A stretch of DNA of 64,000 bases from Clostridia bacterium (GCA_017509785.1 JAFWOT010000025.1:60394-124393), one strand, 5' to 3'. Counted from the first letter of the stretch, positions 28,319 through 63,385 are shown. Made by a program: numbers and translations. The notes: generated by a model not told the origin, from the sequence alone.

Positions 28319-28367
28319 TTGACAAATATCGTTTAACGATATAACATGTATGTATCGTTAAACGATA
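28319..28367 (+). promoter_or_regulatory. Promoter with two palindromic operators (likely PadR sites)
   Basis: TTGACA (28319-28324), 17-nt spacer, TAACAT. Palindrome ATATCGTTTAACGATAT (28326-28342) sits in the spacer. A second copy, TATCGTTAAACGATA (28353-28367), sits downstream. Confidence 0.55.
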
Positions 28368-28391
28368 TTACTTTTCGGAAGGAGGCGCGCC

Positions 28392-28718
28392 ATGCCGAGG
28401 GAAGCTTTGAGCTCGCTTACGGAGCCTATGTACTACGTGCTGCTGGCGCTCGTGCGCCCGCTCTGCGGGATCGAGATAATGGAGCGCGTGAAGGAGCTTT
28501 CACGCGGGCGGCTCGCCATCGGCCCGGGCACGCTCTACACGATGCTCGCAAAGTTCGAGGAAAACGGCCTGATCGCTCTCGCTATGGGACCGGGCTCCTC
28601 GGGAAAACGCAAGACCTACATCATAACCCGTCGGGGCGTCGGGTTCCTAAAGCAGGAATACGAGAGGCTCGAAAGACAGGCCGAGGACGGAAGAGCGATA
28701 ATGGAGGAATTGGTATGA
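28392..28718 (+). CDS. PadR family transcriptional regulator
   Basis: YYVLLALVRPLCGIEIMERVKELSRGRLAIGPGTLYTMLAKFEENGLI. Confidence 0.9.
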   Translation: MPREALSSLTEPMYYVLLALVRPLCGIEIMERVKELSRGRLAIGPGTLYTMLAKFEENGLIALAMGPGSSGKRKTYIITRRGVGFLKQEYERLERQAEDGRAIMEELV

Positions 28719-29407
28719 GCAAGGATACCGTTAAGCGCGTCACGCTTTTCGATTCCACCGATCTCACCGCGGCGGAGGAGTATTTCTCACAAATGGCGCA
28801 GAAGGGCCTGATGCTGAAAAAATACGGCCCTATCTCGCATTTTAGGCGCTCCGAGCCGTGTAAGCTCCGGTTCAGCGTGCAGGTGATCCCGGCGGCGAGG
28901 GGCGAAAACTACGTTAAAAAGACCTCGGAGTACGTCGACCTCTGCGAACAGGCCGGCTGGACCTGCGTTTCGGGCGCCGCCGGTATGTACGTTTTTGCGA
29001 CCGACCGCAGGGACGTGCCGGACGTCGTGACAGATCCGCAGGAGCGCATCGAAGCCGTGACAAAGCAGAGCATAGGCGGGATAATCGCTTCGTTTCTGCT
29101 CTCGCTGTGGCTGTCGATAAAGGTCGTCGGGCTGGTATCGAACCTTATTGAGGGAAAGAGCTTCGCTTCACAGATGGCGTATGAGCTGCCGTATTCGCTG
29201 CTCTGGCTCTCCGTTTTCCTGCTCTTTATAACAAAGACCGTCTCGTTCCTGAAATGGCGGAGGAACGCCAAACGCGACTCCGCCGCAGGACGCGCCATCC
29301 GCTTTTACGGTCTTCGCGCTTCCCGCCGGAGGCGGATCCTGCTCGCGGTATTCTTCTGCCTGCTGGCAGTCAGCCTGGGCGCTTTCATTATAGGTCTGTT
29401 CATCTAA
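28715..29407 (+). CDS. DUF2812-like membrane protein (PadR-associated)
   Basis: ATGA overlap with padR. N-terminus ...DLTAAEEYFSQMAQKGLMLKKYG, with C-terminal TM helices. Confidence 0.7.
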   Translation: MSKDTVKRVTLFDSTDLTAAEEYFSQMAQKGLMLKKYGPISHFRRSEPCKLRFSVQVIPAARGENYVKKTSEYVDLCEQAGWTCVSGAAGMYVFATDRRDVPDVVTDPQERIEAVTKQSIGGIIASFLLSLWLSIKVVGLVSNLIEGKSFASQMAYELPYSLLWLSVFLLFITKTVSFLKWRRNAKRDSAAGRAIRFYGLRASRRRRILLAVFFCLLAVSLGAFIIGLFI

Positions 29408-29416
29408 GGAGGGTAT

Positions 29417-30322
29417 ATGAGCAAGGACGTCAAGAAAGAATTTTTACCGTTCTATTATTCCGATCTCGATGCGGTCGCGCGGCACCTCGAGATGATGGCG
29501 GCGAAGGGGTGGATGCTGAAAAGCTTTGGCAACACCTGTGAATACGAGCCGTGCGAGCCCCTTATCGCGCGGTTCAACGTGGTGCTCTGCCCCGCCAAGG
29601 ACGCGGACTCCTCCCAAATAAAGCCCGAAGCAAGGGAATTCATCGAGCTCTGCGAGGACTCCGGATGGAAGTTCATAGACCATCGGGGGCCGGCATACGC
29701 GTTCTTTACCACCGACGAAACCATCCCCAACATCGTCACCGACGAAGCCGAGCGCATAGAGGCCGTCAGAAAGGCGGGCGGCAGGAGCAGGTTCCTGTAC
29801 ATGGCCAATATCGGGATCAACACGGCGCAGTTCCTGCTTCGCCTTATGAACGCGCTGACGGAAAAGGATCCTGTCTCCCGCGGGCTTTCGATCGCGCTCA
29901 CGGCGTTCTTCGGGCTCGGCGTGATACTGCTCACGGTCGGGCTCATCACGTTGCTGACGAGCGAGAAACGCTGGGTCGATTCGGCGAACGCGGCGATAAG
30001 CGCCGGCAAGCCGATACCGCGGTCGGACGACGTGGTGCTGCGCCGCAGGAAGGCGTATTCGGTCACGTTCATCATTGCGATCGCTGCGGCGACGGCATTG
30101 CTGATCGCGTATGCAATGCGTACGATGAGCCCCGAGGGGCGCTCGTTCCTCGCCGCGATGCTGATCGCGGCGATACCCCTTGCCTTTATTCCGAGGCTGT
30201 TCGGAAAAAAGCGCAGCCCCGCCGCAAAGACGTTCATAATAATAGGGCTCGTATTGGGGTATTTGCTGCTGACCTTCATACTGCTTCTCATAATTAGCGC
30301 GGTATTCGGCGTGTTTCAGTAG
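29417..30322 (+). CDS. DUF2812-like membrane protein, second paralogue
   Basis: YYSDLDAVARHLEMMAAKGWMLKSFG parallels the previous gene. Four or more C-terminal TM helices. Confidence 0.7.
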   Translation: MSKDVKKEFLPFYYSDLDAVARHLEMMAAKGWMLKSFGNTCEYEPCEPLIARFNVVLCPAKDADSSQIKPEAREFIELCEDSGWKFIDHRGPAYAFFTTDETIPNIVTDEAERIEAVRKAGGRSRFLYMANIGINTAQFLLRLMNALTEKDPVSRGLSIALTAFFGLGVILLTVGLITLLTSEKRWVDSANAAISAGKPIPRSDDVVLRRRKAYSVTFIIAIAAATALLIAYAMRTMSPEGRSFLAAMLIAAIPLAFIPRLFGKKRSPAAKTFIIIGLVLGYLLLTFILLLIISAVFGVFQ

Positions 30323-30371: not shown

Positions 30372-31274
30372 ATGGACAAAAAGCTCATTTTAAAAGCCAC
30401 GGCTGCGACCGTGATCTGCCACGTTTTCTGGGGCTTCAGCTTTATGGCGTCGGGGTACGCTTTAAGGGAGGCCCACGTATTTCTGCTGCTCTCGCACAGG
30501 TTCCTGGCGGCCTTTATCGTGATGAGCCTGCTCGTGCTGCTGCGAGCGGCCAAGCTCAGCTTCAGGGGCAAGCGCATACTTCCGCTGCTGCTTCTCGGGG
30601 CGCTGGAGCCCGTCGTCTATTTCTTCGGCGAGCAGTACGGCATACTCCACTCGGGGACGGTGTTCTCCGGCGTTATGATAGCGATGATACCCGTGTTCTG
30701 CATATTGGCGGCGGCGGTGCTCCTCCGTGAGAGACCGACGGCGGGTCAGCTCGTTTTCAGCATAATTTCGGTGGGGGGCGTTATAGGACTCGGCCTCATG
30801 GGCGGAAGGAGCGGCACTGTCGAGCTCATCGGGGTGCTTGCGCTCCTTGTCGCCGTTATCGGCGCGACGGGCTACACCCTGCTTTCGAGGAAGCTCTCGA
30901 ACGAGTTCACCCCATTTGAGCGCACGTATATGATGATAGCAGTCGGCGCCGCCGTATTCACCGTCTGCGCCGCGATAAAATGCGGGTTCTCCCCCGCCGA
31001 ATACGTGAAGCCGTTTTCGGATATCAAATACCTGCTCTGCGTAGTATTCCTCGCGGTATTCTGTTCGGTCGTATGCTACTTCATGTCGGCATACGCGCTG
31101 ACGCATCTGCCCGTCGCGCGGGAGACCGTCTTCTCGAATCTGACGACGGCCGTCTCGGTATTCGCGGGGGTGGTGTTCATGCACGAGCCTTTCTCCTGGC
31201 TCGGGCTCGTCTGCTGCATACTGATACTCGCCGGCATCTACGGCGTGCAGAGGACGGCAAGGGACTCCGGCTGA
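30372..31274 (+). CDS. DMT superfamily (EamA) transporter
   Basis: About ten hydrophobic helices in two EamA-like halves. Confidence 0.85.
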   Translation: MDKKLILKATAATVICHVFWGFSFMASGYALREAHVFLLLSHRFLAAFIVMSLLVLLRAAKLSFRGKRILPLLLLGALEPVVYFFGEQYGILHSGTVFSGVMIAMIPVFCILAAAVLLRERPTAGQLVFSIISVGGVIGLGLMGGRSGTVELIGVLALLVAVIGATGYTLLSRKLSNEFTPFERTYMMIAVGAAVFTVCAAIKCGFSPAEYVKPFSDIKYLLCVVFLAVFCSVVCYFMSAYALTHLPVARETVFSNLTTAVSVFAGVVFMHEPFSWLGLVCCILILAGIYGVQRTARDSG

Positions 31275-31366
31275 CGCATAAGGCTTTTGCCGCCGTATTT
31301 ACTTTGCGGCGGGCCGCGTGTTATAATGATCTATCAAGGGCTTCGGCCCGCATTCTGAGGGAATCT

Positions 31367-33952
31367 TTGGAAAGGCTCGTTATAGGCATGCTGGCGCACG
31401 TCGACGCCGGCAAGACAACTTTATCGGAGGCGCTGCTCTATAAGGCGGGCGCGACGCGGCATTTGGGGCGTGTCGATCACAGGGACGCCTTTTTGGATAC
31501 GCACGAGCTTGAAAAGGAGCGCGGCATAACCATTTTTTCAAAGCAGGCGGAGCTTGAGCTGCCGGGAAAGTCCGTCACGCTCATGGATACGCCGGGGCAC
31601 GTGGATTTCTCCGCCGAGGCGGAGCGCGTACTGCAGGCGCTCGACTGCGCGATACTCGTCATATCCGCCTCCGAGGGGGTCCAGACGCACACCCTGACGC
31701 TGTGGGATCTCCTCACGCGGCACCGTGTGCCCGTTTTCATATTCGTAAACAAGACCGATCTGCCCTGCCCATCGAAGGAGGCGATAGTCCGCTCCCTTCG
31801 TGAAAAGCTCAGCGAGGCCTGCGTCGACTTCACGCAGGATGAAGCCGCCCTCTTTGAGGACGTCGCCTCCTGCGGGGAGGATCTGATGGAGGAGTATTTC
31901 GGGCGCGGTTCGCTCAGCCGCGAGCTCATCGCCCGCGCCGTGATGCATCGCCGCGTCTTCCCCGTCTGCTTCGGCTCGGCGCTGAAGCTCACCGGCGTCG
32001 ACGGGCTGATCGGGGCGCTCTCCTCATACACGAAGGCTCCGGAATACCCGGAGCAGTTCGGCGCGAAGGTCATAAAGGTCAGCCGCGCCGAGGGCGTGAG
32101 GCTCACGTTCATGAAGATAACCGGGGGCGTTCTCCGCGCCAAGCAGACGCTGACGAACCGCTCGGCCTCCGTACCGGAGGATAAGGTCTGGGAGGAGAAG
32201 GCCGATCAGATACGGCTCTATTCCGGGGCGAGGTTCGTTCCCCTTCCCGAGGCGGAGCCCGGGATGGTCGTCGCCGTGACGGGGCTTTCCGCCACTTTCG
32301 CGGGAGAGGGGCTCGGGTGCGACCCGGGCGACGCCGCGCCGAGGCTGAGGCCCGTCATATCGTATTCATTGAGATTCCCCGAGGGCGTGAACGCCTTCGA
32401 CGCCTACCGCCGCATCGCCCAGCTCAGCGAGGAGGAGCCTCTGCTCGATCTCGTATGGGATGAACAGCACGGCGAGATAAAGGCACTCCTGATGGGCGAG
32501 GTCCAGCGCGAGGTCCTCGCGAGGCTCATACGCGACAGGTTCGGCCTCGAAACGGAGTTCTGCGCAGGGTCCGTCATGTACATGGAGACCATATCCGCCC
32601 CCGTCCGCGGGATAGGGCATTTCGAGCCCCTGCGGCATTTCGCGCACGTCGAGCTGCGCCTTGAACCGCTTCCCCCGGGGAGCGGGCTGCAGTTTGAAAC
32701 GGAGGTCCCGCAGAACGAGCTCTCACGCTCCTGGCAGAGGCTGATACTGACGCACCTTGCCGAAAAGCGGCACCGGGGCGTGCTGACGGGCTCCCCGCTC
32801 ACGGACGTGAAGATAGTGCTGACGGGCGGAAAGGCGCATCTGAAGCACACCGAGGGAGGCGACTTCCGCCAGGCGACATACCGCGCCGTGAGGAACGCGC
32901 TCATGTTCGCCGGGAACGTGCTGTTGGAGCCGTATTACGAGTTCCGCCTTGAGGTGCCGGAGGAGAATATCGGCAGGGCGATGACGGATATTCGCCGCAT
33001 GGAGGGCGAGTTCACTCAGCCCGAAAACCTCGGGGGGACCGCCGTTCTCACGGGGACCGCGCCCGTTTCGGCGATGAGGGATTACGCAGCCTCGCTTGCC
33101 GCTTACACGCGCGGCAGAGGGAGGCTGAGCCTCACCCCGGCGGATCACCGCCCCTGTCACAATACCGAGGAGGTCGTGCGGGAGATCGGCTACGACCCCG
33201 AGTCCGACCTTCGCAATACGCCCGATTCGGTCTTCTGCGCAGGCGGCGCGGGCTTCACCGTGAAGTGGTTCGAGGTCGCCTCCTATCTGAAACAGCAGAA
33301 GTCGACCCCCAACGAGAAGATGCCCTCGAAGAAGCCCGTCATCCGAAGCGAGGACGACGAGCTGAAGGCCATATTCGAGCGCACCTACGGCAAGGTCGCG
33401 GAGACGAGCCTCCTTCCGAGGAGGAAGAAGGACGAGCCCGCGGCGGAGATCTCGAGGGAGGCGGGCGACGAGTATCTCCTCATAGACGGGTACAACGTGA
33501 TATTCGCGTGGGAGAGCCTGCGCTCGCTGGCGGCGGAATCGATCGATTCCGCGAGGGAAGCCCTGCGCAGGATGATGATAAACTACGCCGCCGTGAGAAG
33601 GACGACGCTCATACTCGTTTTCGACGCTTACAAGGTCTCGGGCGGGGCCGAGAAGGTCGAGGAGGACGGCGGCATATACGTCGTCTACACGAGAGAGAGC
33701 GAGATCGCGGACGTATTCATAGAGCGCGCCGTCCAGAAGCTGACGGACAGGAAGCGGAACGTGCGCGTCGTCACCTCGGACGGACTGGAACAGCTCATAG
33801 TCATGGGAAGGGGCGCCCTCCGCGTGCCGGCCTCCGCCTTCGAAAAGGAGGTGCAGCTCGCATCGGACAGGCTCTCCGATATTATGAAAAAGCTTCAAAC
33901 GGAAGGAAAAACGGTACTGCATCTATGGGAGAGGATGATTCAAAACTCATAG
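31367..33952 (+). CDS. TetM/EF-G-like translational GTPase fused to a C-terminal YacP/Rae1 NYN ribonuclease domain
   Basis: Likely TTG start at 31367 after GAGGGA (alternatively ATG at 31388). G motifs AHVDAGKTT, DTPGH, NKTD, with EF-G-like domains II-V to about nt 33300. NYN motifs LLIDGYNVIFAW, LVFDAYKV, YTRESEIADVFIE, VVTSDGLEQ (about 33470-33870). No stop codon between the two parts. Confidence 0.85.
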   Translation: MERLVIGMLAHVDAGKTTLSEALLYKAGATRHLGRVDHRDAFLDTHELEKERGITIFSKQAELELPGKSVTLMDTPGHVDFSAEAERVLQALDCAILVISASEGVQTHTLTLWDLLTRHRVPVFIFVNKTDLPCPSKEAIVRSLREKLSEACVDFTQDEAALFEDVASCGEDLMEEYFGRGSLSRELIARAVMHRRVFPVCFGSALKLTGVDGLIGALSSYTKAPEYPEQFGAKVIKVSRAEGVRLTFMKITGGVLRAKQTLTNRSASVPEDKVWEEKADQIRLYSGARFVPLPEAEPGMVVAVTGLSATFAGEGLGCDPGDAAPRLRPVISYSLRFPEGVNAFDAYRRIAQLSEEEPLLDLVWDEQHGEIKALLMGEVQREVLARLIRDRFGLETEFCAGSVMYMETISAPVRGIGHFEPLRHFAHVELRLEPLPPGSGLQFETEVPQNELSRSWQRLILTHLAEKRHRGVLTGSPLTDVKIVLTGGKAHLKHTEGGDFRQATYRAVRNALMFAGNVLLEPYYEFRLEVPEENIGRAMTDIRRMEGEFTQPENLGGTAVLTGTAPVSAMRDYAASLAAYTRGRGRLSLTPADHRPCHNTEEVVREIGYDPESDLRNTPDSVFCAGGAGFTVKWFEVASYLKQQKSTPNEKMPSKKPVIRSEDDELKAIFERTYGKVAETSLLPRRKKDEPAAEISREAGDEYLLIDGYNVIFAWESLRSLAAESIDSAREALRRMMINYAAVRRTTLILVFDAYKVSGGAEKVEEDGGIYVVYTRESEIADVFIERAVQKLTDRKRNVRVVTSDGLEQLIVMGRGALRVPASAFEKEVQLASDRLSDIMKKLQTEGKTVLHLWERMIQNS

Positions 33953-34671
33953 CGAGATTCTGCGAATTGGCCGACCGCGCCGACCGGACCGGCCTCTATA
34001 CGAATACGAAGTTCCTGAACGCAGCGGAGCAGTCCGTGCTTTTGAGGCTGCGCCTGCCCGTAAAGGCGGACCTTTGGGGCGGGTACGAAAACGCCGAGAG
34101 GCGTATCGCCGTTTTCGGGAGCGAGGAAACGGCGGGGTATGAGTTCACGCCGCCCATCGAATGCGTGCTCATCCGCCCCGCGAACGAGCGCTTCGCGGAC
34201 GAGCTCACCCACAGGGATTTTCTCGGCTCGCTCATGGGCCTCGGCGTGACGCGCGAGACGCTCGGGGATATAATAGTCGACGGGAACCGCGGTTACGTTT
34301 TCTGCCTCGATACGGTCGCGGGGTTCATATGCGATTCCCTGCGGGAGGTCAGGCGGACGAGCGTCCGCTGCGAAAGGGCGGAACCCCCGAAGCAGAGCGT
34401 GAACAGGGTCGAGCGGCGAAGCTGCACGGTCGCCTCCGAAAGGCTGGACGCGATAGTTTCCGCGGTCTGGAAACTCTCCCGCGGGGAGGCGAAGACCCTC
34501 TGCGAAAAGGAGCTCGTTTTCATCGATTCGAGAGTCTCCGCCAAGGGCGGCGCGCAGCTGAATGAGGGCGCCGTCGTCTCAGTCCGCGGGTACGGAAGGT
34601 TCCGCTTCCTCGGGATAGAGCGCGAGACGAAGAAGGGCAGGCTCCGGGTCACGGTCGAGGTATTCGTATGA
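33925..34671 (+). CDS. ylmH: YlmH-type S4-domain RNA-binding protein
   Basis: Aligns with B. subtilis YlmH as recalled (GGYENAERRIAVF; HRDFLGSLMGLGVTRETLGDI; VASERLDAIVS...VSVRGYGRFRF). Overlaps the upstream gene by 28 nt. Confidence 0.85.
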   Translation: MGEDDSKLIARFCELADRADRTGLYTNTKFLNAAEQSVLLRLRLPVKADLWGGYENAERRIAVFGSEETAGYEFTPPIECVLIRPANERFADELTHRDFLGSLMGLGVTRETLGDIIVDGNRGYVFCLDTVAGFICDSLREVRRTSVRCERAEPPKQSVNRVERRSCTVASERLDAIVSAVWKLSRGEAKTLCEKELVFIDSRVSAKGGAQLNEGAVVSVRGYGRFRFLGIERETKKGRLRVTVEVFV

Positions 34672-34772: not shown

Positions 34773-35768
34773 ATGAAACGCATAATTTCCATCGCAGTCA
34801 TACTTCTGATGCTCTTCTCGCTCTGCGCGTGCACCGGGAAGACGAACGAACCCGACTCTTCCGCGGAGCCTACCCGGGAGGCTCAGGCCCCCACCGATGA
34901 GCCTGCCGCAGAGCCCACCGAGGGACCCACCGAGGGACCCACCGAGGCGCCCGCGGAGCGCCCCTCCTGCGCGCTTGCGGAATACCCGAAGGTGGACGGC
35001 TCCACCGCCAACATACCGATGGCGCTCGGGCTTATCAAGGCAGTCACCGGATGCACGGACGACGAGGCTCAGGCCTCCATCAATTTCTCCACGACGGACT
35101 ACTCCTATGAGGCTCTTGCCGAGGGGCGCTGTGATATGCTCCTCGTTTACGAGGCGAGCCGCCCCACTAAGGAGCAGTACGATCCCGCGAACAACATGGA
35201 TATGCACCCCATCGGGCTTGACGCGCTCGTTTTCATCACCAACACGGACAACCCCGTCGATTCGCTCACGCTCGATCAGATCCGCGGCATTTTCAGCGGC
35301 GAGATCACCAACTGGAAGGACGTCGGCGGACTCGACGCCCCCATCAACGCCTTCCAGAGGCCGGAGCTTTCCGGCTCGCAGACGCTGATGCTCGACCTTT
35401 GCATGAAGGAGGTGCCCATGGCGCCCGTTGAACAGATCCTCGTCTCCAACACGATGGAGGACGTCATCAACGATATCGCCGCATATGACAACTCCGCGAA
35501 CGCGATAGGCTATTCCGTCTACTACTACGCAAAGAACATGTATACCTTCCCCAACCTCAAATTCATCACGGTCGATGGGGTGACCCCCACCAACGAGACG
35601 ATCAACTCCGGCGAGTATCCCTTCATCAATCCCTTCTACGCGATACTGCCGAAGCAGAACGTCGACCCGATGGCCGCCTCGATGGTGAACTGGCTTGAAA
35701 GCGAGGAGGGTCAGCTCTTCGTATCCCAGTGCGGGTACGTTCCCTATATGAAGGGTATCGCCGAATAA
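34773..35768 (+). CDS. PstS-like (PBP_like_2) substrate-binding lipoprotein
   Basis: Lipobox LFSLCAC and a P/T/E linker. SLTLDQIRGIFSGEITNWKDVGG and IGYSVYYYA are typical of the PstS family. No pstCAB genes are adjacent. Confidence 0.7.
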   Translation: MKRIISIAVILLMLFSLCACTGKTNEPDSSAEPTREAQAPTDEPAAEPTEGPTEGPTEAPAERPSCALAEYPKVDGSTANIPMALGLIKAVTGCTDDEAQASINFSTTDYSYEALAEGRCDMLLVYEASRPTKEQYDPANNMDMHPIGLDALVFITNTDNPVDSLTLDQIRGIFSGEITNWKDVGGLDAPINAFQRPELSGSQTLMLDLCMKEVPMAPVEQILVSNTMEDVINDIAAYDNSANAIGYSVYYYAKNMYTFPNLKFITVDGVTPTNETINSGEYPFINPFYAILPKQNVDPMAASMVNWLESEEGQLFVSQCGYVPYMKGIAE

Positions 35769-35786: not shown

Positions 35787-36974
35787 ATGAAACGCATCGT
35801 TTCCTTCGCGCTCATGCTCCTGCTGCTCGCGCTCTGCGCGTGCGGCAGCGAGCGGGAGCAGCAGGCCTCCGTTCCGACGGAGGCTCCGACGGAGCGGATA
35901 ACCGAGAGCCCGACGGCGGAACCCACCGCCGCCCCCACCGAGGCGCCGACCCCGGAGCCCACCGAGAAGCCGGATTTTTCGGGCCTCATACCGCAGACGG
36001 GCAGGCTCTGCGAGGGGCCGATTTTCCCCGAGCCCGGCAAATACCTCGTGCTGAGCGCGGGCGGCGGGCTGTTTCTCGTTTTCGACAACATGGGCGAGCT
36101 CATAAAGACGTTCAACGCCGTTGAGGACGATTCCGCCTTCGGCTCCCCCGGCATCTACGGCGAGGAAGGTATCTGCGAGGGCGTAAGGATCTCGACCGGA
36201 GAGGACCTTGGGATCTTCTCTCATTTTGACGACATAGTAATCAAAACCGCCTGGACGGAGAAAAAGGGTAAATGGAAATGCAGCGTCACCGAAGTGTTCG
36301 ACAAGGATTTCAACCTGCTGTTCTCGTTCGACGACGCCGACGAGGGATGCGTGGGCGATGATGGCGGCATACTCCATTTGGGTGACGACTATCTGTTCCT
36401 GGACCGCCACTGCGTTTATCACGGTTCAAAAGCTCCCGAATTGGTTTACAATTCGCCCATCCGCGTGTTCGGCTCCGACGGCTCAAGGAAGGCGGATATA
36501 GACCCAAAGCGCTTCCCCAGGCAGATAATGGGCGTTTTAGGCGGGAAATATCTCATTTGCGGCAGCGCTGAGCCCCAGCGTGACCCGTACTATTTCTGGG
36601 AGTCGCACGAGCTCTCCATCTGGGATATCAGCGGGAAAATGCTCATGGATAACGTCATGGTCTCCATCCGCTCCACGTACACGGTGGAAGCCGAGGGCGG
36701 GTACGGCGTACTGCTCGCGGGCGATTACCTTGAGGACGAGCATGGCTTCTGCTACAACTCGGAGCTTGAGATCGTTCCGGAGATCCCCGAGGGCGCCGAT
36801 ATCGATCCGTTCTGCGAACGATACGGGGCCGTCAACCTCCCGGACGTAAGGGTCTTTGACTACGACGGATATGTCTTCTCCGGAGTCAAGGACATGGACG
36901 GCAAGTGGCTCTTCCGTATCTATAATCCTAAGTTCGCAAGCGACAGTATCCCGAATCCCTGGAATTGGTTTTGA
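35787..36974 (+). CDS. Lipoprotein of unknown function, paralogue A
   Basis: Lipobox LLALCAC and an EAPTE-type linker. Conserved body shared with paralogue B (DNMGELIKTF, FRIYNPKFASD). Confidence 0.7.
   Translation: MKRIVSFALMLLLLALCACGSEREQQASVPTEAPTERITESPTAEPTAAPTEAPTPEPTEKPDFSGLIPQTGRLCEGPIFPEPGKYLVLSAGGGLFLVFDNMGELIKTFNAVEDDSAFGSPGIYGEEGICEGVRISTGEDLGIFSHFDDIVIKTAWTEKKGKWKCSVTEVFDKDFNLLFSFDDADEGCVGDDGGILHLGDDYLFLDRHCVYHGSKAPELVYNSPIRVFGSDGSRKADIDPKRFPRQIMGVLGGKYLICGSAEPQRDPYYFWESHELSIWDISGKMLMDNVMVSIRSTYTVEAEGGYGVLLAGDYLEDEHGFCYNSELEIVPEIPEGADIDPFCERYGAVNLPDVRVFDYDGYVFSGVKDMDGKWLFRIYNPKFASDSIPNPWNWF
35868..36036 (+). repeat. Copy 1 of a 169-bp near-identical segment shared by the two lipoprotein genes
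   Basis: TCCGTTCCGACGGAGGCTCCGACGGAGCGG...GGGCCGAT(T/A)TTCCCCGAGCCCG. Only a handful of mismatches against 37074-37242. Confidence 0.85.
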
Positions 36975-36995: not shown

Positions 36996-38198
36996 ATGAA
37001 AATCCCGGCTTTGATCATTTCAATATTGCTGATCGCGTCCCTTGCCGGCTGCGGTAAGGCAGATCAGCATTCGTCCGTTCCGACGGAGGCTCCGACGGAG
37101 CGGCTGACCGAGAGCCCGACGGCGGAGCCCACCGCCGCCCCCACCGGGGCGCCGACCCCGGAACCCACCGAGAAGCCGGATTTTTCGGGCCTCATACCGC
37201 AGACGGGCAGGCTCTGCGAGGGGCCGATATTCCCCGAGCCCGCGAAGTATCTCGTAATATCCGGCGAGGGGGATAATTTCTACGTCTACGACAACATGGG
37301 CGAGCTCGTAAAGGTGTTCAAGGCGGTCGAGGATGAATACGCCTTCGGCGGGCCGGGCTTTTACGGCGAGGACGGCATCTGTGAGAACGTGCTGATAAGC
37401 ACGGGCGAGACCCTTGCCCCGTTCCACCTGTTCGGAAGCTGCTTCATATTCATTGACGAGGACTGGGAAAACGACAGCTTCCGTCTGAAAAGGATAGCGG
37501 ATGAGGATCTTCAAACGCTGTTCGAGTTCTCCGACGAGGAAGCGCCGGAGCTCGGCATTGCCGGCGGCGTGCTGAAGCTGGGCGACAGGTTCCTCGTGCT
37601 CGAACGCGAGCCGATATGGGACTTCGGCGAGAGCGAAACGAACGAAGATGAGATCCTGATCCTTGACGGAAAGGGCAAAACCGTCGGCCGCATCGACCCT
37701 GAGCCCTTCGGAAACATCATCGGGGTCTATGCCGACAAATACCTGATCTCCGGCGAGAGGATCCCCGACGGGGATGAGGACGAGCTCTCATACGAATCAT
37801 ACGGCTTCGTATGCACGCTTTACGACCTTGACGGGAACATGATCATGGATAGGGTCTACCCCGTCTTTACGAGTTCCTTCGCCATCGAGGACGAGGTGGA
37901 CATAGGAACTCTGCGCTATGCCGACTATCTGCGGGACAGCGACGGCCGTTATCTCGACTCCGATCTGAAGCCCGTTGAAAGCATCCCCGAATACGCTCCC
38001 TCCCCGACCTATCTGCGCTACGGGAACCTCAATTGGGAGATGGAAAAGCTCGGCTATTCCGCCGAGGTTTGGAGCGGAGTTTACTCGGGAGTGCGCCTTA
38101 TCGACGAGGACCGCAGGCCCGGCGAGTGGACGTTCCGCATCTATGACCCCAAGCTCGCGAGCGACCGCGACAACTCCCCCTGGCATTGGTGGGATTGA
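36996..38198 (+). CDS. Lipoprotein of unknown function, paralogue B
   Basis: Lipobox SLAGC. The first ~60 mature residues are almost identical to paralogue A. The C-terminus FRIYDPKLASD...PWHWWD parallels A. Confidence 0.7.
   Translation: MKIPALIISILLIASLAGCGKADQHSSVPTEAPTERLTESPTAEPTAAPTGAPTPEPTEKPDFSGLIPQTGRLCEGPIFPEPAKYLVISGEGDNFYVYDNMGELVKVFKAVEDEYAFGGPGFYGEDGICENVLISTGETLAPFHLFGSCFIFIDEDWENDSFRLKRIADEDLQTLFEFSDEEAPELGIAGGVLKLGDRFLVLEREPIWDFGESETNEDEILILDGKGKTVGRIDPEPFGNIIGVYADKYLISGERIPDGDEDELSYESYGFVCTLYDLDGNMIMDRVYPVFTSSFAIEDEVDIGTLRYADYLRDSDGRYLDSDLKPVESIPEYAPSPTYLRYGNLNWEMEKLGYSAEVWSGVYSGVRLIDEDRRPGEWTFRIYDPKLASDRDNSPWHWWD
37074..37242 (+). repeat. Copy 2 of the 169-bp near-identical segment
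   Basis: Aligns base for base with 35868-36036. The flanking coding sequence is much more diverged. Confidence 0.85.
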
Positions 38199-63084: not shown

Positions 63085-63385
63085 CCCGGTTCTCCTCCCC
63101 GCGGCGGCGCATGACGCTATCCGCCGCGGCGAAATCAACGGCCAATGCCATTGGTGAGATCCTCGGACTTCGTCCTCGGGTGAAATGAAATCCGTCCCGC
63201 ACCCCGCGAAGCGATTTCACCCACCGAAGGTAGATTTCACCCGTCCGAAAGGACGGATCTCGTTGAAAAAAGCGCTTTTGTCCGGTAGATAAAAAGCGCT
63301 TTTTTCATGGTGGAAGCGAGGGGAGTCTTTTCCCGCGGCGGCGCATCCGCTTTCCGCCCTTTCGGGGTTCTCCTCCCCTCGCCCC
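63085..63385. repeat. Repeat-dense non-coding stretch (short direct and inverted repeats)
   Basis: GGTTCTCCTCCCC at 63088 and 63366. CCGCGGCGGCGCAT at 63099 and 63333. GATTTCACCC at 63213 and 63233, with its complement at 63178. AAAAGCGCTTTT twice. GCGAGGGGAG paired with CTCCCCTCGC. Confidence 0.6.

Follow-up and report, generated by a model that had tools for sequence, protein, structure and literature searches.

Clostridia fusion proteins that join a Tet/EF-G-type translational GTPase to a Rae1-like NYN nuclease domain, with a ylmH overlap in one sub-clade

Tet proteins of ten Clostridiales species have been described as having acquired a YacP-like NYN domain (Atkinson 2015, BMC Genomics, PMC4342817), and TetM-NYN_YacP fusions were subsequently noted in some Clostridia, where their role was unclear (Matelska et al. 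2017, NAR, PMC5499597). These reports devote one or two sentences to the fusions and assign them no function, and no functional study of Tet-NYN_YacP fusions was found in the literature. In TetM, loop III of domain IV is the element that matters most for function: its conserved Ser508-Pro509 extends to the tetracycline site at C1054, and Pro509 sits in the drug site (PMC8161019, PMC4750697). The activity of the B. subtilis nuclease Rae1 (YacP) is abolished in the published catalytic mutant, D7N D81N (PMC10351889). B. subtilis carries ylmH within its ylm operon, close to the dcw cluster, and a term search through the article on YlmH (main text) returned no mention of ylmH next to a GTPase-NYN gene (PMC11317155).

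The gene considered here lies in the window, a 64,000-nucleotide stretch of DNA from a Clostridia bacterium, and encodes a protein with the same architecture, and from the same taxon, as the published fusions. It is thus not new, as the first-pass annotation had supposed in knowing of no description of such a fusion, but a member of the already noted Clostridia Tet-NYN_YacP family. What is added here is the size of the family, its invariant catalytic residues, its domain IV loops, a linker motif, and a clade-specific overlap with ylmH.

The protein consists of three parts: a five-domain translational GTPase of the Tet/EF-G type, a charged linker of about 55 residues, and a YacP/Rae1 NYN domain (Table 1). 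In the window sequence, the plus-strand reading frame is open without interruption across 30980..33952, and the family consensus (MxRLVxGMLAHVDAGKTT) begins at the same position as the TTG start. The promoter candidate is found 40 nt upstream of this codon, within the 92-nt gap that follows an EamA gene. Pfam combines four domains on the single polypeptide, GTP_EFTU (4-222, E 6e-47), EFG_IV (402-515), EFG_C (518-599) and NYN_YacP (704-850, E 1e-42, 146.4 bits versus a gathering score of 24.6), with weak matches to EF-G_D2 and EFG_III in addition. The complete TetM/EF-G-type GTPase in one uninterrupted frame, the Lys/Glu-rich linker and the full NYN domain that had been read from the DNA at first pass are thus borne out, including all of the motifs quoted for both domains. 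The AF2 model of the fusion has a pTM of 0.63, and the orientation of its NYN domain relative to the GTPase is not reliable.

Table 1. Features of the GTPase-NYN gene and of the overlapping ylmH homologue, in window positions.
Feature	Position	Strand	Description and evidence
Sigma-70-like promoter candidate	31298..31327	+	TTTACT, 18 nt, TG-TATAAT (extended -10); consensus scan, 10/12 matches; consensus match only
Fusion gene	31367..33952	+	861 aa, TTG start; ORF, translation, Pfam, NCBIfam, homologues of like layout
G domain, residues 1-222	31367..32032	+	Pfam GTP_EFTU; G1 AHVDAGKTT, G2 RGITI, G3 DTPGH, G4 NKTD, G5 GSALK
EF-G-like domains II-V, residues 243-599	32093..33163	+	Pfam EF-G_D2, EFG_III, EFG_IV, EFG_C; phmmer; Foldseek
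Domain IV loop, residues 415-428	32609..32650	+	Family-specific motif G-x-G-H-[FY]-E-P-L-R-H-Y-A-E-V
Domain IV loop III equivalent, residues 488-501	32828..32869	+	G-[RK]-A-H-x-K-H-T-E-G-G-D-F-R; residue-by-residue TetM alignment
Folded C-terminal extension, residues 600-645	33164..33301	+	Helix, beta-hairpin, helix; follows the Pfam EFG_C (domain V) match
Charged linker, residues 646-700	33302..33466	+	Predicted disordered (AF2 pLDDT below 50); poorly conserved
Short conserved linker motif, residues 665-675	33359..33391	+	E-L-x-x-I-F-x-R-T-Y-G; conservation, low-confidence helix in AF2 model
YacP/Rae1 NYN nuclease domain, residues 702-850	33470..33916	+	Pfam NYN_YacP, phmmer; D707, D753, D782, D805
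ylmH homologue	33925..34671	+	248 aa, ATG start; N-terminal domain, RRM-like domain, S4 domain
Gene overlap, 28 nt	33925..33952	+	ylmH ATG within the Leu-Trp codons of the fusion (CTATGG)

The same architecture and the same precomputed domain set are present in all 120 of the 120 nearest homologues, which share 53-99% identity with the window protein over 97-100% coverage, and the NYN domain is present in 142 of the 150 best representatives of 50%-identity clusters. Fetching related loci from independent assemblies yielded 105, of which four are cut by contig ends; in the remaining 101 evaluable loci, among them that of the isolate Oscillibacter valericigenes An860, the GTPase and the NYN domain share one ORF in every case. 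All 17 complete GTDB loci have uninterrupted ORFs of 852-892 aa, and an independent run contains a 99%-identical copy of the fusion (P0001/L021). The idea that misassembly or a frameshift has artefactually merged two genes could draw on one relative in which the GTPase is split over two frames (L018) and on the few representatives that have no NYN part; the fusion into one ORF across so many loci refutes this explanation, which retains a negligible probability.

The GTPase motifs AHVDAGKTT (10-18), DTPGH (74-78) and NKTD (128-131), together with RGITI and GSALK, are built from residues that are invariant or nearly so among 58 family members, and K16, H78 and D131, which include the P-loop lysine and the catalytic histidine of DxxGH, are kept in 135-136 of 136 representatives. 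Judged by these residues, the fusion carries an intact GTPase. Its GTPase part matches TetM (3J9Y, E 1e-64, phmmer) and also EF-G, with EF-G structures matched at E 1e-51 in Foldseek. TetM and TetO are its best matches among solved structures, tet_protect is the top-scoring NCBIfam model, NCBI labels relatives as “TetM/TetW/TetO/TetS family” proteins, and the published fusions were assigned to the Tet subfamily (PMC4342817). The fusion might thus be a tetracycline ribosomal protection protein that dislodges the drug like TetM and TetO, with the NYN domain adding an accessory, possibly RNase-based, resistance activity, as suggested by Atkinson in 2015 (PMC4342817). The tet_protect score of 366.1 bits is, however, under half of the curated cut-off of 775 bits, and the loop most important for TetM function is replaced: TetM L505-V510 correspond to A-H-x-K-H-T in the fusion family, Ser508-Pro509 align with L492-K493, and a lysine occupies the Pro509 position in 57 of 58 and 127 of 136 family members, all within a different and nearly invariant motif. 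A second domain IV loop, at 415-428, is likewise nearly invariant among the 136 representatives and unlike the aligned TetM sequence. Because of the low score and the replaced loop III, a role in tetracycline protection is distinctly unlikely.

The distribution of the family points in the same direction. The fusion genes occur in varied chromosomal housekeeping neighbourhoods, with no mobile-element genes among their called neighbours and no defence-system match in their context. The twenty GTDB species loci cover several Clostridia families, comprising Clostridia MAGs and the isolate Oscillibacter valericigenes An860, and because the family reaches down to 40% identity across these families, its spread in this large Clostridia group resembles long-standing vertical descent more than the travels of a mobile resistance gene. 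The TetM alignments end at residue 585. Beyond the domain V match lies the extension of residues 600-645, which is predicted to fold (AF2 pLDDT of about 80-89) and is conserved, with C597, Y609, D614, S621, C624, G627 and W634 invariant in the region; Pfam gave no match to it.

The linker that follows is rich in E, K and R, and ranges in the family from a minimum of 56 through a median of 82 to a maximum of 139 residues. Its short motif (E665 in 118 and I669 in 124 of the 136 representatives) is a candidate docking helix. The NYN domain, with the motifs LLIDGYNVIFAW (704-715), LVFDAYKV (750-757), YTRESEIADVFIE (774-786) and VVTSDGLEQ (801-809), matches B. subtilis YacP/Rae1 (5MQ8/5MQ9) over 145 residues (E 7e-24, phmmer). 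D707, D753, D782 and D805 align with Rae1 D7, D53, D81 and D104, and all four are invariant in 58 of 58 and 136 of 136 sequences; a loss of acidic residues on proper alignment is thus not seen, and by its conserved residues the domain is catalytically intact.

Which RNA this nuclease cuts is a matter on which two views may be held. The older view of YacP, drawn from the gltX-cysS-mrnC-yacO-yacP operon, is that of a factor in rRNA/tRNA processing (PMC5499597, PMC4342817), and subunit maturation involves other translational GTPases, BipA among them (PMC8313970). The nuclease could thus target rRNA or tRNA, with the GTPase docking on ribosomes or on intermediates of their assembly or hibernation, in ribosome maturation, turnover, or stress-induced inactivation; a tethered NYN domain would adjoin rRNA as much as mRNA. 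Against this, the experimental data on Rae1 all describe translation-dependent cleavage of mRNA (PMC10351889, PMC12407103, PMC13622287), the NYN domain is closely homologous to Rae1 and its conserved motifs show no obvious alteration, and the coupling to ylmH described below points toward rescue of stalled translation complexes. A target in rRNA or tRNA is therefore rather unlikely.

The 28-nt overlap with a YlmH orthologue, claimed at first pass, is upheld by several lines of evidence. The downstream product matches Pfam YlmH_RBD (E 2e-14) and B. subtilis YlmH (8S1P, residues 35-254, E 4e-23, phmmer), and its AF2 model (pLDDT 93.5) aligns with chain V of 8S1P over 247 columns at a TM of 0.74, the NTD+RRM part matching 2FPH and the S4 part matching uS4. 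The Pfam S4 model gives no score on the window product but does score on close homologues, and the S4 region aligns and is predicted to fold as in YlmH. R173 and R186, which are invariant in 34 homologues, correspond to R182 and R195 of B. subtilis YlmH, essential residues that contact H69. By sequence and predicted fold, the downstream gene is thus a true YlmH homologue. An overlap of 19-28 nt is found in ten of the fetched related loci, all of one sub-clade, and is kept in about eight distinct lineages (57-79% fusion identity) while other neighbours change. The linkage is absent at the Oscillibacter, Lachnospiraceae and Ruminococcus loci and at 80 metagenome loci, as well as from a 67%-identical relative (L023), and at a further locus (L107) a YlmH homologue of similar identity is unlinked to the fusion. 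A survey of relatives thus finds the fusion in all evaluable loci and the ylmH coupling only in one sub-clade, so that the latter is not a property of the family. Since most members lack it, and since YlmH homologues also occur unlinked, the linkage may be local synteny without functional meaning.

Taken from sequence, the most likely function is that of a Tet/EF-G-type GTPase tethering a Rae1-like mRNA nuclease at stalled ribosomes, for which the chances appear slightly better than even, and a ribosome-targeted role in RNA surveillance is plausible. In its GTP form, the GTPase part would bind the ribosomal factor site, with domain IV probing the decoding centre. The two near-invariant, family-specific loops at the tip of domain IV suggest recognition of a particular ribosomal state, for example an empty A site or a ribosome that has stalled or collided, and not tetracycline removal. 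Once bound, the factor would hold the NYN domain at a raised local concentration. Swinging on a linker of 56 residues or more, the domain would cut mRNA at the stalled ribosome's edge, the manner in which free Rae1 works in B. subtilis. The factor would be released upon GTP hydrolysis, and truncation of the mRNA would turn the ribosome into a rescue substrate. In the sub-clade of the window, the fusion gene is translationally coupled to ylmH, whose product is an RqcP-like player in ribosome-associated quality control, so that nuclease and clean-up factor would be made together.

The first-pass annotation had proposed a different course, in which the NYN domain is delivered under GTP control into the A site and cuts the A-site codon, after which YlmH processes the resulting 50S-peptidyl-tRNA. 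The GTPase is indeed of the A-site-binding EF-G/TetM type, ylmH does overlap the fusion gene, and Rae1 was initially modelled in the A site (as PMC12407103 recounts), a premise since revised by the same laboratory (2025 Rae1 data). The geometry is nevertheless difficult to reconcile with this course. Factors of the EF-G/TetM type place their own domain IV in the A site, which could not simultaneously accommodate an NYN domain of about 150 residues, and a disordered linker sets the latter apart. Because of both the occupied A site and this linker, it is more probable that the NYN domain contacts mRNA beyond the A site. Moreover, cutting the mRNA by itself leaves a non-stop 70S complex and feeds tmRNA directly, whereas a 50S-peptidyl-tRNA for YlmH requires an extra subunit-splitting step, and ylmH is linked in one sub-clade only. 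A cut inside the A site is disfavoured by the 2025 Rae1 data, and the proposal as a whole has little probability. What holds of the earlier interpretation is the architecture, the catalytic residues and the identity of YlmH; what does not is the novelty, the A-site cut and the direct path to a 50S-peptidyl-tRNA, while the link to ylmH holds in one sub-clade.

The tethered-nuclease function can be set against known systems. With Rae1, the fusion shares the NYN_YacP alignment and the four aspartates; the chemistry is probably the same, and action on mRNA at stalled ribosomes may be shared as well. Rae1, however, is free-standing, with 170-181 aa, locates ribosomes unaided and is usually encoded in a cysS-mrnC-yacO-yacP context (PMC5499597), whereas here the NYN domain, in a different context, is appended C-terminally to a GTPase of about 645 residues, so that recruitment would proceed via the factor-binding site and depend on GTP. 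TetM and TetO (3J9Y, 3J25, 4V6V) are the best sequence match over residues 4-585, with a five-domain EF-G-like layout and a loop III of equal length, but the fusion adds the folded extension, the linker and the nuclease domain, and resides in a housekeeping chromosomal context. EF-G (fusA) and EF-G2 have the same fold and Pfam domains as the fusion GTPase, which shares about 25% identity with them, has different domain IV loops and, at 256 bits, scores far below the EF-G equivalog cut-off of 659 (NCBIfam). B. subtilis YlmH (8S1P), an RqcP-like RQC factor, is matched by the downstream product at full length in sequence and fold, and differs in being encoded in the ylm operon rather than overlapping a GTPase-NYN gene.

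A bolder reading, which is possible but on balance doubtful, is that the family constitutes a dedicated GTP-gated sensor of stalled ribosomes with its own mRNA nuclease, in which the domain IV loops read the decoding centre and which one lineage co-translates with YlmH. If so, mRNA cleavage and the clearance of obstructed 50S subunits would form one operon-encoded rescue pathway in that Clostridia lineage. SmrB of E. coli and Cue2 of yeast are collision-sensing mRNA endonucleases, and Dom34-Hbs1 is a GTPase-delivered A-site probe. The analogy with these systems is functional only, as their folds are unrelated to that of the fusion; in them, nuclease and GTPase reside on separate proteins, whereas the fusion carries both on one polypeptide and would, if the reading is true, unite in one bacterial protein the counterparts of a GTPase-delivered A-site probe and of a collision nuclease.

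The GTPase-nuclease fusion lies in an open frame that spans positions 30980 to 33952 of the window, and translation from the TTG at 31367 yields 861 residues. This codon is taken as the start because three features agree on it: it matches the start of the family consensus (MxRLVxGMLAHVDAGKTT), it has a GAGGGA 5 nt upstream, and a promoter-like site precedes it (see the table). Pfam recovers GTP_EFTU (residues 4-222), EFG_IV (402-515), EFG_C (518-599) and NYN_YacP (704-850, E 1e-42), together with weak matches to EF-G_D2 and EFG_III. The GTPase, EF-G-type and NYN_YacP domains that the first-pass annotation had read from motifs are thus all present, each motif that it quoted was found in its place, and its description of a GTPase-NYN fusion overlapped by ylmH is borne out in every part by the reading frame, Pfam, the motifs and the YlmH homology.

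Features of the window around the fusion gene, with window coordinates
Feature	Position	Strand	Remarks
DUF2812 membrane protein, first of two consecutive genes just upstream of the fusion	28346-29407	+	
DUF2812 membrane protein, second	29417-30322	+	
EamA transporter	30372-31274	+	follows the DUF2812 pair
Promoter-like site	40 nt upstream of TTG 31367		TTTACT-18-TGTTATAAT; gap after the EamA transporter gene
Fusion gene	31367-33952	+	861 aa
Second domain IV tip loop	32609-32650	+	residues 415-428; G-x-G-H-[FY]-E-P-L-R-H-Y-A-E-V
Domain IV loop III equivalent	32828-32869	+	residues 488-501; G-[RK]-A-H-x-K-H-T-E-G-G-D-F-R
ylmH	33925-34671	+	248 aa
PBP_like_2 lipoprotein	34773-35768	+	precedes the tandem pair; PT-rich linker of the same kind
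Lipoprotein-like gene, first of tandem paralogues	35787-36974	+	46% identity to the second
Lipoprotein-like gene, second	36996-38198	+	
Gut-1 RNA (RF01706)	63195-63265	-	52.8 bits vs gathering score 50; only Rfam match in 64 kb

The notion that no such fusion had been described is incorrect, as Matelska et al. (2017) had already pointed to TetM-NYN_YacP fusions, of a role they considered unclear, in certain Clostridia (PMC5499597). The literature searched contained no later functional work on the family, and the gene is a real, well-conserved member of a known but functionally uncharacterised family. New here are the scale of this family, the invariance of its nuclease and GTPase residues, its own decoding-centre loops, a linker motif, and a clade-limited translational coupling to ylmH.

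All of the 120 best database matches carry the same precomputed Pfam set as the fusion, at 53-99% identity and full coverage. Searching GTDB with a single genome for each species gave 20 loci, in hosts that include uncultured rumen Clostridia, Pseudoflavonifractor, Lachnospiraceae, Ruminococcus, Peptococcaceae and the isolate Oscillibacter valericigenes An860, and a search of metagenomes that used the C-terminal part as query returned at least 600 stretches, at least 572 of them confirmed. That assembly created the fusion is a reading to which next to no probability can be given: the complete copies from the GTDB scan are uninterrupted ORFs of 852-892 aa (17/17), and NYN and GTPase share one ORF in 101 of 105 loci, the other four ending at a contig edge, so that the architecture is the same in 101/101 loci without a contig break. 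In one related locus, from a Lachnospiraceae MAG (L018:5567-8231), the gene lies in two reading frames with a break at about residue 505-516, reflecting either a frameshift or an assembly error. Among the 150 best representatives of a library clustered at 50% identity, scored by phmmer and MAFFT alignment for NYN presence and motif conservation and reaching down to 40% identity, 142 have the NYN domain; the other eight could, from their sequences, be truncated gene calls or genuinely unfused proteins. Five representatives of 656-719 aa (P0240, P0251, P0264, P0266 and P0268) have the family GTPase part and no NYN, ending in the extension or the linker, P0266 directly after the IFERTYG motif; either their gene calls are truncated or they occur naturally in unfused form.

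Beyond the Pfam EFG_C (domain V) match, residues 600-645 form a folded, conserved extension, and phmmer and NCBIfam alignments of the fusion to TetM/tet_protect stop at residue 585/586. The extension may resemble the C-terminal extension of TetM (...VRYMF...), which we take as a lead only. It is followed by a charged linker, predicted to be disordered (AlphaFold2 pLDDT <50 in a model of pTM 0.63), whose length in the family has a minimum of 56 aa, in the window protein, and a median of 82. A conserved motif, E-L-x-x-I-F-x-R-T-Y-G, lies in the middle of this linker (residues 665-675); because the model places it without confident docking on the remainder of the protein, the motif could be a binding site for some partner, for instance the ribosome. 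In an alignment of the NYN domain with B. subtilis YacP/Rae1 (5MQ8/5MQ9, E 7e-24), D707, D753, D782 and D805 correspond to Rae1 D7, D53, D81 and D104. Loss of these acidic residues had been raised as a possibility, and on alignment all four are invariant in 136/136 sequences; Rae1 D7N D81N is a catalytic-null mutant (PMC10351889).

The downstream gene starts at an ATG that still lies within the fusion gene, giving an overlap of 28 nt. Its identification as a YlmH orthologue is upheld at the level of homology by a Pfam YlmH_RBD match, by similarity to B. subtilis YlmH (E 4e-23 over residues 35-254), by superposition of an AlphaFold2 model (pLDDT 93.5) on 50S-bound YlmH (8S1P chain V; 247 columns, TM 0.74), and by the equivalents of the essential R182 and R195, which are invariant in 34 homologues. 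The proposed linkage holds in part. Loci with a ylmH gene directly behind the fusion are L001-L006, L021 (99% identity, from the organism of the window itself), L024, L025 and L106. They make up about eight distinct lineages with fusion identities of 57-79%, and each has ylmH starting within the Leu/Ile-Trp codons of the fusion, at an ATG or, in two, a GTG, so that the genes overlap by 19-28 nt. The other neighbours differ, being EamA and a PBP-like lipoprotein in the window, a TRAP transporter in L024, and a rubredoxin-oxidoreductase and SpoIVA in L025, indicating that the pair is kept and not a larger block. A further 14 fusion/YlmH pairs, matched between two protein searches, are circumstantial. 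No ylmH adjoins the fusion in L007-L020, in the Oscillibacter locus L022 or in L023, and none was found near it in 80/80 metagenome loci, a profile search included. In L023:7500-7900 (P0029, 67% identity), the ...LHLW... tail is kept and followed by about 20 extra residues with no ylmH after it, suggesting that the gene once downstream was lost or rearranged recently. The linked YlmH looks like the ordinary YlmH of its lineage and not a special paralogue, because relatives lack the linkage and another Oscillospiraceae genome (L107) has an unlinked YlmH of comparable identity (52%) beside the L21/L27 genes. Judged by gene order, the overlap represents an operon layout peculiar to one clade, and it fits a shared ribosome-rescue role without proving it; if functional, the coupling would join Rae1-type and RQC-type rescue routes. 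The chain first suggested, in which the nuclease makes 50S-peptidyl-tRNA for YlmH, skips the subunit-splitting step, and a term search of the main text of the YlmH paper returned neither 'NYN' nor 'GTPase' (PMC11317155).

The wider surroundings of the fusion, covering about 4-10 kb around each match in relatives, are of housekeeping type, with genes such as ProRS, LspA, RNase Y, TrmK, PNPase and SpoIVA. When every ORF lying up to 2.5 kb from the fusion was clustered across 105 loci, the result was no family-wide partner gene, the clusters being only synteny of closely related gut metagenome contigs and spurious high-GC ORFs. Scanning the window for Rfam families and tRNAs turned up no tmRNA or other translation-related RNA near the fusion; the Gut-1 RNA, 29 kb away, fits an organism of the gut or rumen. 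A role in a defence system was dropped, since PADLOC models matched neither the fusion nor YlmH and the neighbourhoods are housekeeping. As to the other genes in the table, a PadR regulator precedes the DUF2812 pair in L021, and the DUF2812/EamA arrangement is not common to other ylmH-linked loci. The tandem lipoprotein-like genes are near-identical over their first ~100 residues, Pro/Thr-rich linker included, and Pfam yields only a PT repeat for them.

EF-G/TetM-type factors fill the A site with their own domain IV, and a tether is therefore the simplest reading of the fusion anatomy. The same property makes it highly improbable that the nuclease cleaves in the A site itself, as first proposed. 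The natural, ancient and strictly conserved joining of a Rae1 domain to a factor-site GTPase acts as a 'Rosetta stone', from which we infer that a Rae1-type nuclease is recruited via the GTPase-associated centre in many gut and rumen Clostridia. In its GTP form, the factor would use the factor site and decoding centre to recognise a stalled ribosome, the NYN domain, held by a long flexible tether, would cut the mRNA at the ribosome border or the disome interface, GTP hydrolysis would release the factor, and the truncated message would pass the ribosome to rescue systems. This mechanism as a whole, with the GTPase docking on a stalled ribosome and the tethered NYN cutting mRNA, is favoured with moderate confidence, ribosome binding, the recognised state, the substrate and the position of the cut being deduced from the anatomy; that the nuclease is instead directed at rRNA or tRNA in maturation or turnover appears unlikely. 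Rae1 acting on collided ribosomes produces trans-translation substrates (PMC13622287), and as to how Rae1 recognises the ribosomes it cuts on, a 2025 paper describes structural work as still under way (PMC12407103). Given this Rae1 work of 2025-2026, the fusion is a good experimental target: non-hydrolysable GTP analogues would be expected to give a stable complex, a handle for biochemistry and cryo-EM, to which the invariant domain IV loops and the linker motif add further handles.

The GTPase part has the EF-G fold (Foldseek), its G1-G5 motifs are invariant or almost so, and of the proteins with solved structures it is closest in sequence to TetM and TetO (E 1e-64). Six related proteins (P0004, P0007, P0038, P0042, P0091 and P0094) are labelled by NCBI 'TetM/TetW/TetO/TetS family tetracycline resistance ribosomal protection protein', and thousands of fusion genes bear such labels in public databases. 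That the fusion genuinely protects against tetracycline, its nuclease being an accessory, is nonetheless doubtful to a high degree. The NCBIfam tet_protect model gives the window protein 366 bits against a cut-off of 775, less than half. In TetM, no element matters more for function than loop III of domain IV, whose Pro509 sits in the tetracycline site (PMC8161019, PMC4750697); the fusion has a loop of equal length in which the TetM residues are replaced, with Lys493 at the Pro509 position. Both tip loops of domain IV, which belong to the portion of the factor inserted into the decoding centre, are near-invariant in 136 diverse representatives, down to 40% identity, and this suggests a specific ribosomal ligand other than tetracycline. 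The loops contain many His, Lys and Arg residues (GHFEPLRH..., AHxKHTEGGDFR), and their conservation exceeds that of most of the G domain. The public resistance annotation of the family is, on these sequence grounds, probably an over-annotation, and because of the low tet_protect score and the absent TetM loop III residues, resistome surveys may miscount the family, so that counts from gut and rumen metagenomes may be inflated by mislabelled fusion genes. In both respects in which it can be compared with the TetM/TetO ribosomal protection proteins, the tet_protect score and loop III with its Pro509, the fusion departs from them.
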